12,257 nt of DNA. It comes from a virus. The translations under genes and the position numbers were made by a program. The stretch is from IMG/VR virus record IMGVR_UViG_3300035698_012983, one strand, 5' to 3'. Of the stretch, positions 9,155-9,227 are shown piece by piece. How positions within the stretch are numbered: the first letter of the stretch is position 1; each line of letters starts with the position of its first letter. Under the pieces are notes generated by a model. That model made no database searches. It saw nothing but the letters and a program-made list of their open reading frames with translations, and was not told the origin of the DNA.

Positions 9155-9227
9155 TATATAGATGATGGATTTGAACCACCGACCCATTGCTTCTAAGGCA
9201 ATTGCACTACCAACTGTGCTAATCTAA
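9155..9227 (-). tRNA. tRNA-like cloverleaf embedded in the ncRNA locus (anticodon UAG; acceptor stem mispaired at 1:72 and 2:71; possible pseudo-tRNA or structural domain)
   Basis: Reverse complement is CTTAGAT-TA-GCAC-AGTTGGTA-GTGC-A-ATTGC-CTTAGAA-GCAAT-GGGTC-GGTGG-TTCAAAT-CCATC-ATCTATA-T. The D, anticodon and T arms are canonical. The acceptor stem pairs only at positions 3-7, and there is no CCA. Confidence 0.4.

Follow-up and report, generated by a model that had tools for sequence, protein, structure and literature searches.

The 12,257-nucleotide (nt) viral stretch IMGVR_UViG_3300035698_012983 from IMG/VR (the whole of it hereafter the window) carries, at 9156–9228 on the minus strand, a 73-nt transfer RNA (tRNA)-like cloverleaf with the anticodon UAG, which ARAGORN labels tRNA-Leu(tag) and which is inserted in the linker of a GOLLD RNA. 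We consider it reasonably probable that this cloverleaf is a tRNA-derived domain retained in GOLLD and not used as a tRNA-Leu: on the best reading it is neither a decaying gene nor an initiator-like tRNA but a retained, putatively functional, non-decoding domain. Since its mispaired acceptor end is typical of the modules embedded in GOLLD RNAs, it is unlikely ever to serve as an ordinary tRNA. The original prediction, made from the window's letters, had recognized the cloverleaf and its UAG triplet correctly, with coordinates (9155–9227) that are one base off and with the minus strand left unstated. The parts of the element, in which tRNA position p corresponds to window coordinate 9229−p, are as follows (the stems and arms as delineated by ARAGORN and the Rfam tRNA model):

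9222–9228, minus strand: 5′ strand of the acceptor stem
9204–9219, minus strand: D arm, GCAC-AGTTGGTA-GTGC
9186–9202, minus strand: anticodon arm, ATTGC-CTTAGAA-GCAAT
9193–9195, minus strand: UAG triplet at the anticodon position; its 7-nt loop, CUUAGAA, is canonical and has U33 and A37
between the anticodon and T arms, minus strand: variable loop of 5 nt
9164–9180, minus strand: T arm, GGTGG-TTCAAAT-CCATC
9157–9163, minus strand: 3′ strand of the acceptor stem
9156, minus strand: discriminator U73

The Rfam tRNA model (RF00005) aligns with the cloverleaf over its full length (1–71) at 57.4 bits (gathering score 29, E=1.8e-10), a match far above chance, and the ARAGORN and Rfam alignments bear out the canonical D, anticodon, and T arms that had been read from the sequence. 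All the tertiary or conserved nucleotides are kept, viz., U8, A14, G18G19, U33, A37, T54-T55-C56, A58, and C61, and the T-loop is the canonical GTTCAAATCC. The predicted mispairing of the acceptor end likewise holds: in the cmscan alignment the outermost pairs, C1.A72 and U2.U71, are non-canonical and pairs 3–7 are standard, and the element thus lacks the seven-pair acceptor stem with a paired 1:72 of a functional elongator tRNA. Nor, as had also been noted, is a CCA encoded, the discriminator U being directly followed by AAAUUA. The UAG anticodon, moreover, sits on a type-I body with a 5-nt variable loop and U73, which is inconsistent with the tRNA-Leu isotype. Bacterial tRNA-Leu is a type-II tRNA, with a long variable arm and A73, and the free-standing Leu(UAA) and Leu(AAG) tRNAs of the window itself (82 and 85 nt) are both type II with A73. 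Folded thermodynamically, the 73-mer and the related sequences do not yield the cloverleaf, and their z-scores are weak (−0.9 to −2.0), an outcome that is uninformative given the weak acceptor stem.

The element lies, as originally described, in an ORF (open reading frame)-free block of about 1.75 kilobases (kb; roughly 8360–10105), whose G+C content of 40–43% stands out against a background of 25–33%. The large RNA of this block is a GOLLD. The Rfam GOLLD model (RF02032) matches 8814–9303 on the minus strand with 163.5 bits (gathering score 150, E=1e-44) over all of its positions (1–416 of 416); a large, less conserved, ORF-free 5′ domain lies upstream of this 3′ domain, bringing the total to more than ~800 nt; and the context is that of a phage tRNA array, ARAGORN detecting four more tRNAs on this strand of the window. 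The cloverleaf is an insertion in an unstructured stretch of the GOLLD model and runs on the GOLLD strand, starting 15 nt past the first hairpin of the 3′ domain and ending 16 nt ahead of the GCAAAGAC motif. The suggestion that it might be a tRNA-like domain of the large RNA is therefore upheld by its nesting in the GOLLD linker, as well as by the equivalents with compensatory changes that are found in many other GOLLDs (below). The elements of this RNA are:

8814–9303, minus strand: conserved 3′ domain of GOLLD (Rfam RF02032, cmscan alignment)
9244–9303, minus strand: first hairpin of the 3′ domain (Rfam model 1–61), forming the 5′ bound of the linker (cmscan; kept in loci L015 and L189)
9229–9243, minus strand: 5′ linker flank AGAGAAAAACACAUU, from the hairpin to tRNA position 1 (sequence)
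9140–9155, minus strand: 3′ linker flank AAAUUAUAUGUUAAAA, from the discriminator to the GCAAAGAC motif (sequence)
9125–9139, minus strand: conserved GOLLD motif GCAAAGACUUGGACG, where the core resumes after the linker (cmscan; present in all loci with an embedded tRNA)
9304–9745, minus strand: variable, ORF-free, G+C-rich 5′ domain of GOLLD, with an approximate 5′ boundary (blastn, composition, and ORFs)

In blastn comparisons, alignments of 930–1090 nt that span the 5′-domain region are 67–74% identical to the GOLLDs of loci L015, L179, L184, L187, and L189. The relatives are IMG/VR viral contigs, one of them of 323 kb; a blastn search of the non-coding RNA block against 50,697 GenBank phage records recovered no relative of GOLLD and matched nothing but generic tRNAs (Thr, Val, Ile), and a scan of genome contigs matched only four contigs of metagenome-assembled genomes and no cultured host.

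A tRNA within the GOLLD linker is an arrangement that has already been described, and the cloverleaf is a further example of it. Descriptions of tRNAs or pseudo-tRNAs in this variable linker (J13/15) are attributed to Weinberg et al., 2009 (as cited in PMC6582537), Morgado et al., 2020 (as cited in PMC12990946), and Kretsch et al., 2025 (PMC12286853). A Mycolicibacterium GOLLD has a tRNA-Phe in J13/15, for which an ‘inhibited storage’ has been proposed (2026 review, PMC12990946), and a northern blot for the pseudo-tRNA of the M. aubagnense GOLLD found no separate RNA (PMC6582537). The cryo-electron microscopy structure of GOLLD env-38 is a 14-mer cage, in which the linker at the position of our cloverleaf is disordered and faces the cage interior (Kretsch et al., 2025, PMC12286853); besides env-38, a homo-oligomeric cage is established for just the S. 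agalactiae 3′ domain (PMC12286853, PMC12990946). By analogy, the cloverleaf of the window would be located inside a cage. Apart from Weinberg et al., 2009 and Morgado et al., 2020, which fall outside this comparison and leave priority uncertain, the GOLLD literature consulted makes no mention of acceptor-end fraying, a missing CCA, or anticodon drift, and a literature search with the same two exceptions never finds GOLLD and ‘acceptor stem’ mentioned together.

Homologous loci carry the cloverleaf, and ARAGORN and Rfam score it well. In an unselected sample of 120 loci, obtained by scanning IMG/VR for the GOLLD 3′ end, ARAGORN finds a tRNA at the same position in six; Rfam confirms a GOLLD (157–190 bits) with a nested tRNA in all six, and the 1:72 pair is unpaired in all seven embedded tRNAs, the window copy included. 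Both the length and the sequence of the GOLLD linker vary greatly, and most GOLLDs are without the cloverleaf. Both nhmmer anchors, i.e., the hairpin and the motif at 9125–9139 that served as an anchor for the equivalent linkers of other loci, were found in only 8 of the 120, and inspection by eye of 50 sequences with a recognizable hairpin (49 loci and the window) revealed the cloverleaf in eight. A targeted scan for a T-loop, the GCAAAGA motif, and a GOLLD 3′ end at the right spacing recovered 63 loci, 58 of them new. ARAGORN calls a tRNA at the T-loop in 58 pattern-matching loci, yielding 46 distinct sequences for alignment, and the placement seen in the six unselected loci recurs in 57 others of the targeted scan; in seven further loci the T-loop is present in an element too degenerate for a call.

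Among these 46 distinct embedded tRNAs, the D stem (98.4%), anticodon stem (97.8%), and T stem (100%) are almost invariably paired, as are acceptor pairs 5–7 (100%) and pair 4 (93%). Acceptor pairs 1, 2, and 3, by comparison, are unpaired in 28/44, 18/46, and 19/46 sequences (64%, 39%, and 41%). Double-sided changes number 268 cells against 84 ± 10 in shuffled alignments, with none of 500 shuffles reaching the observed value and slid registers also falling far below it. The flanking positions (−1:73, −2:74, and so on) pair no better than chance and do not extend the acceptor helix; since they fail to continue it, the end is frayed and does not form an internal loop. The triplets at the anticodon position are diverse (GUU 23, UUU 10, UCU 6, CUU 3, UAG 2, CUA 2, and others), with U33 conserved in at least 90%. 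G73, which bacterial tRNA-Asn has as its discriminator, occurs in none of the embedded tRNAs, even though their commonest anticodon is GUU (Asn). In 47 of the 58 the anticodon ends in U (GUU, UUU, CUU, UCU, UAU, UGU, GAU, AUU) and would read ANN codons, a bias for which AT-rich codon demand, common descent, and the targets of tRNA-directed host defences are all candidate explanations. Position 34 and three nucleotides of the acceptor stem are all that distinguish the embedded tRNAs of loci L125 (GUU) and L134 (UUU).

The free-standing tRNAs of the same phage loci provide the relevant control. A mismatch in the top three acceptor pairs is present in 43/47 embedded tRNAs (91%) vs 24/710 free-standing ones with anticodons other than CAU (3.4%; Fisher p=5e-48), and a CCA is encoded in 1/47 (2%) vs 581/779 (75%). 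In the first 121 sequences, the free-standing tRNAs with an unpaired 1:72 are nearly all initiator tRNA-Met(CAU) (18 of 20). When the cloverleaf is compared to 826 distinct tRNAs, it is closest to GOLLD-embedded ones whose anticodons are of the Lys and Asn types; 24 of the 60 tRNAs nearest to it are embedded, a class that accounts for 5.7% of the set. There is no tRNA-Leu among these neighbours, the free-standing ones being Ile, Thr, and Val tRNAs. This relationship indicates that the module has been inherited together with GOLLD and that its anticodon triplet has been drifting.

For the window's own GOLLD lineage, a pattern built from the sequence common to the window and L015 retrieved L179 and L186, L184 and L185, L187, and copies of L015 from viral and metagenome collections, along with a single chance match, L181, that was set aside; L189 was found independently, via a neighbouring protein. 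L189 is the closest relative, with a 74% identical GOLLD (Rfam 163 bits) and a nested tRNA of 54.2 bits. All four stems are kept in the six distinct members (window, L189, L179, L184, L187, L015), with compensatory changes in the D stem (GCAC/GTGC to GCTC/GAGC) and in the anticodon stem (ATTGC/GCAAT to ATTGT/ACAAT and ATCGC/GCGGT), and with five fully paired versions of the T stem (GGTGG/CCATC, GTTGG/CCAAT, GGCGG/CCGTC, GCGGT/ACCGC, GCAGG/CCTGC). U2.U71 occurs in all six and is never repaired, with only L189 counting as evidence for its conservation because the search pattern forced the acceptor sequence of the others; at 1:72 the relatives have U-A where the window has C.A. The loops tell a different story from the stems. 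Only in the window are G18G19, a TTCAAAT T-loop, and the 7-nt CUUAGAA loop found together; L189 has the anticodon loop CUUAGGA (with UAG kept), a D-loop without GG, and the T-loop TTTAACT, and L179, L184, L187, and L015 display an 8-nt anticodon loop, CUUUUGGA, and non-canonical T-loops of 6–7 nt. L189 further possesses two free-standing type-II tRNA-Leu(UAG) genes, which make its embedded copy redundant for decoding. In this lineage the fold is selected and the decoding features are not. The idea of a decaying tRNA gene fails for the window copy, with its canonical loops and tertiary nucleotides, and is partly true of the lineage, in that L189, L179, L184, L187, and L015 show signs of decay (loss of G18G19, of the TTC T-loop, and/or of the 7-nt anticodon loop) with the four stems kept.

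We propose that the cloverleaf would be transcribed within the ~930-nt GOLLD transcript, where selection would maintain an L-shaped scaffold, namely the three internal stems (D, anticodon, and T) with the lower four pairs of the acceptor stem, and, in the window copy, apparently also the elbow nucleotides and the anticodon loop with U33 and A37. The acceptor features on which a translating tRNA depends are missing, viz., paired 1:72, 2:71, and 3:70, the CCA, and agreement of the discriminator and variable arm with the anticodon. Such a domain would stay covalently attached, serving as a structural module or a tRNA mimic displayed inside the cage, and would be neither released nor charged nor used for reading CUA codons. 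Its frayed end may reflect the lack of selection for recognition by RNase P, the CCA-adding enzyme, aminoacyl-tRNA synthetases, and EF-Tu; compatible with this, the two strands might have to diverge towards the flanking GOLLD helices. The fraying might also shield GOLLD from being cut.

Several alternatives to this retained domain must be weighed. According to the storage idea that has been published (PMC12990946; PMC12286853, Fig. 4c legend), the cloverleaf would be, or would become, a genuine decoder that remains uncleaved in the cage and, upon its opening, is released by RNase P and 3′ processing, receives a CCA, and enters translation. We regard this as unlikely for the window, even though its copy has the canonical loops, tertiary nucleotides, and normal score of a tRNA, and even though no other tRNA of the window bears UAG, its free-standing Leu tRNAs having UAA and AAG. 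Close relatives keep their stems with 8-nt anticodon loops and with G18G19 and TTC lost, and L189 has two normal tRNA-Leu(UAG) genes beside its embedded copy. The embedded anticodons are indeed mostly those that AT-rich phages commonly supply (GUU, UUU, and UCU leading), and the differences between L125 and L134 would be a plausible Asn-to-Lys identity switch, were the tRNA real; yet the discriminators break the isotype rules, with G73 absent throughout and U73 accompanying a Leu anticodon in the window, and the window copy is type I where bacterial tRNA-Leu is type II. Some embedded tRNAs do have intact acceptor stems, that of L176 along with a CCA, but tRNAs destined for release should obey the same acceptor constraint as their neighbours, from which they depart both in mismatches (91% vs 3.4%) and in the CCA (2% vs 75%). 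No free pseudo-tRNA was detected in M. aubagnense either (PMC6582537). The differences at the acceptor end, taken together with the selected fold, favour a covalently retained domain over a stored tRNA.

A functionless passenger, in which a tRNA gene from the adjacent array was captured in a permissive linker and has been decaying from the acceptor end first, strikes us as more doubtful still. It would account for the high variability of the linker and the absence of the cloverleaf from most GOLLDs, for the degenerate versions (the seven loci without an ARAGORN call and the non-canonical loops of L015, L179, L184, and L187), and for the 64% frequency of unpaired 1:72, which would approximate the unconstrained expectation, 10 of the 16 base combinations being non-pairing. 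It does not fit the 93–100% pairing of the internal stems and acceptor pairs 4–7 with abundant double-sided changes among the 46 distinct sequences, nor the persistence of the stems in the window's lineage though the surrounding GOLLD is only 67–74% identical; stem pairing with compensatory changes implies purifying selection on the fold as opposed to neutral decay. Likewise, the embedded tRNAs of different GOLLD lineages are each other's closest relatives (24/60 vs 5.7%), and this mutual closeness indicates long-term vertical retention. By far the least probable alternative is a special-purpose tRNA, either initiator-like by virtue of C1.A72 or having its first three 5′ nucleotides replaced by a Thg1-like 3′–5′ polymerase. 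C1.A72 is the pair of the E. coli initiator tRNA, and the mismatches of the family are confined to pairs 1–3, exactly those that mitochondrial tRNA 5′-editing repairs. The initiator possibility raised in the original prediction founders on the anticodon, which is UAG and not CAU, on the anticodon stem, which has two G-C pairs at its base and is missing the three G-C pairs of the initiator, and on 11:24, which is C-G and not A-U. It is left unsupported by the 1:72 mismatch itself, since this is part of a general fraying of pairs 1–3 common to embedded tRNAs of every anticodon. As for editing, the mismatches arise from changes on both strands with no sign of the 3′ strand being preserved as a template, and no Thg1-like or other tRNA-repair enzyme is encoded among the ten window ORFs scanned.

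Certain observations weigh against the retained, non-decoding domain that we prefer. The window copy scores like a genuine tRNA (57.4 bits), with canonical loops and tertiary nucleotides, and only one of the four free-standing tRNAs of the window (the CUA suppressor) encodes a CCA, making the missing CCA weak evidence locally. Among the 46 distinct embedded tRNAs, four are without a mismatch in the top three pairs and one (L176) has a full acceptor stem with an encoded CCA; a few of them may still be real tRNAs. RNase P tolerates C1.A72 in initiator tRNA, so some processing is possible, and we infer the non-excision of the cloverleaf. Ascertainment explains part of the T-loop invariance in the large set, since GTTCRANNCC and a call by ARAGORN were conditions of the search; the 46 sequences are linked by phylogeny, and the counts are not independent events; and the acceptor sequence of four lineage relatives was dictated by the search pattern. 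Finally, the loss of elbow nucleotides in close relatives argues, for this lineage, against a tRNA mimic that strictly requires the elbow.

GOLLD is among the largest structured RNAs of bacteria and phages; the structure of its cage has been solved, and the linker tRNAs are one of the few clues to its function. Current proposals see these tRNAs as cargo for storage and release. The features separating embedded from free-standing tRNAs sit exactly at the constraints of a translating tRNA, viz., the top of the acceptor stem, the CCA, the discriminator, and the match to isotype. A speculative proposal, which we put forward only tentatively, is that GOLLD cages carrying the domain would display up to 14 uncleavable, unchargeable tRNA-shaped modules in their interior as bait or docking sites for a partner that recognizes tRNAs. 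Such a partner might be the ribosome, which has been reported to bind GOLLD in pull-downs, a host anticodon nuclease or another defence directed at tRNAs, RNase P, or a tRNA-modifying enzyme. A free-standing tRNA of the window (3108–3184, minus strand) bears the anticodon CUA, which is complementary to the embedded UAG; that this tRNA of the phage might be the docking partner is more speculative. If correct, GOLLD would be a tRNA-decoy or docking nanocage, providing a first functional handle on the class. For annotation, the embedded elements should not be counted as phage tRNA genes (Leu, Asn, Lys) in assessments of codon supplementation or recoding.

The ORF-free block contains further elements besides the GOLLD core. 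A likely intrinsic terminator on the minus strand (window ~8385–8423), comprised of GGGAGC, a 12-nt loop, and GCTCCC followed by TTTATTTTTG, ends the block ~390 nt past the GOLLD 3′ end; a similar element ends the block of L187, and the automated terminator scan missed the one in the window because its loop exceeds 8 nt. Just upstream of the GOLLD 5′ domain, at ~9830–9875 on the minus strand, are three tandem copies of AATAATTTGAAAAT, partly kept in L015, which could be a promoter or a regulatory repeat; sigma-70-like matches near these repeats are weak and not above the shuffled expectation. Downstream of GOLLD, within the block, lies a second tRNA-like four-way junction (8611–8702, minus strand), with a 7-base-pair acceptor-like stem (TGGGCTA/TAGCCCA), the arm GCTGG/CCAGC, the arm CTACTT/AAGTAG with the 16-nt loop AGTAAGATGCATACGA, and a T-arm-like GGGG-TTAAAAT-CCCC. 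Its detection by ARAGORN requires a lowered threshold, and nothing in Rfam matches it. L187 has a version with 82% identity, in which one arm has a compensatory change and the 16-nt loop is unchanged, and L206 has a similar fold with an identical 16-nt loop.

The other tRNAs of these loci are also of some interest. The CUA tRNA at 3108–3184, an amber suppressor that ARAGORN labels ‘Pyl’, has a perfect acceptor stem and an encoded CCA; CUA tRNAs are also found in L015 and in most of the relatives that bear a gene for the Major Vault Protein (MVP; below), and their distribution suggests a reassignment of TAG in the window's phage group, the ORFs of the window being listed here under code 11 only. 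Free-standing tRNAs with Leu anticodons (CAA, UAA, UAG) that are short (73–76 nt) and, unlike the normally type-II tRNA-Leu of bacteria, have no long variable arm are encoded at the following positions, the three of L015 having perfect acceptor stems:

L015, 3184–3259, 7830–7905, and 8078–8152, minus strand: short Leu-anticodon tRNAs
L020, 4828–4900: short Leu-anticodon tRNA
L200, 4093–4165: short Leu-anticodon tRNA

In one GOLLD subfamily (L002, L019, L021, L034, L035, L047, L054, L071, L104, and L105), a tRNA-Pro(UGG) and tRNA-Met(CAU) pair ends ~920–940 nt upstream of the GOLLD 3′ end, abutting its 5′ end, and the Met tRNA of this pair is initiator-like with an unpaired 1:72 (U.U). This organization agrees with the location of env-38 downstream of a Met-tRNA (PMC12286853).

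Approximately 1.4 kb downstream of GOLLD, an 805-amino-acid ORF (4951–7368, minus strand) codes for a homolog of MVP, as indicated by its Pfam matches (MVP_shoulder 1.5e-27, Vault_3 1.7e-11, Band_7 2.8e-5) and by its best matches in the PDB, which are major vault proteins (E ~5e-22, residues 440–769). It has thirteen IMG/VR relatives with 61–81% identity, which occur in tRNA arrays, one of them on a 323-kb contig. Phage MVPs have been reported in a 2023 preprint (10.1101/2023.11.10.566534), which does not mention GOLLD or tRNAs. We rejected a general link between GOLLD and the MVP gene: the two are adjacent only in the window, L187, and L189, with no GOLLD beside the MVP gene in 7 of 8 other loci searched with Rfam or in the remaining five searched with blastn. 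Three small ORFs flank the RNA block:

730–1086, minus strand: small ORF
7725–8171, minus strand: small ORF
10106–10423, minus strand: small ORF

Their products comprise a thioredoxin (4e-25), an MGS-like domain (7e-13), and a weak match to GNAT acetyltransferases below the Pfam cut-off; the GNAT-like ORF is kept beside GOLLD in L179, L184, and L185 with 51–54% identity.

In comparison to known systems, the cloverleaf shares with the published GOLLD-linker tRNAs the host RNA, the position between the hairpin and GCAAAGnC, the strand, and the context of a phage tRNA array, but in place of the tRNA-Phe of Mycolicibacterium or the unspecified pseudo-tRNA of M. aubagnense the window has UAG on a type-I body. 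It resembles a canonical elongator tRNA in its cloverleaf, 7-nt anticodon loop with U33 and A37, U8, A14, G18G19, T-loop, and normal covariance score, and differs in having 1:72 and 2:71 unpaired, in lacking a CCA, and in being internal to a structured RNA of ~930 nt. Unlike bacterial tRNA-Leu, it has neither the long variable arm nor A73. With the bacterial initiator tRNA-fMet it has in common the C1.A72 mismatch, and it departs from it in the UAG instead of CAU, the three missing G-C pairs of the anticodon stem, the C-G at 11:24, and the additional U2.U71 mismatch. More broadly, on general grounds and with no sequence or Rfam relationship between them, the cloverleaf can be likened to tRNA-shaped modules that lie within or are made from larger RNAs and are recognized by their shape and not for decoding, namely the tRNA-like domain of transfer-messenger RNA (tmRNA), the module of the bacterial Y RNA YrlA, the 3′ tRNA-like structures of plant viruses, and the mascRNA of MALAT1. 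The YrlA module lacks an anticodon arm of the tRNA type, and mascRNA is cut out by RNases P and Z. The tmRNA and the viral tRNA-like structures have kept an aminoacylatable acceptor end with CCA, which sets them apart from the cloverleaf embedded in GOLLD.

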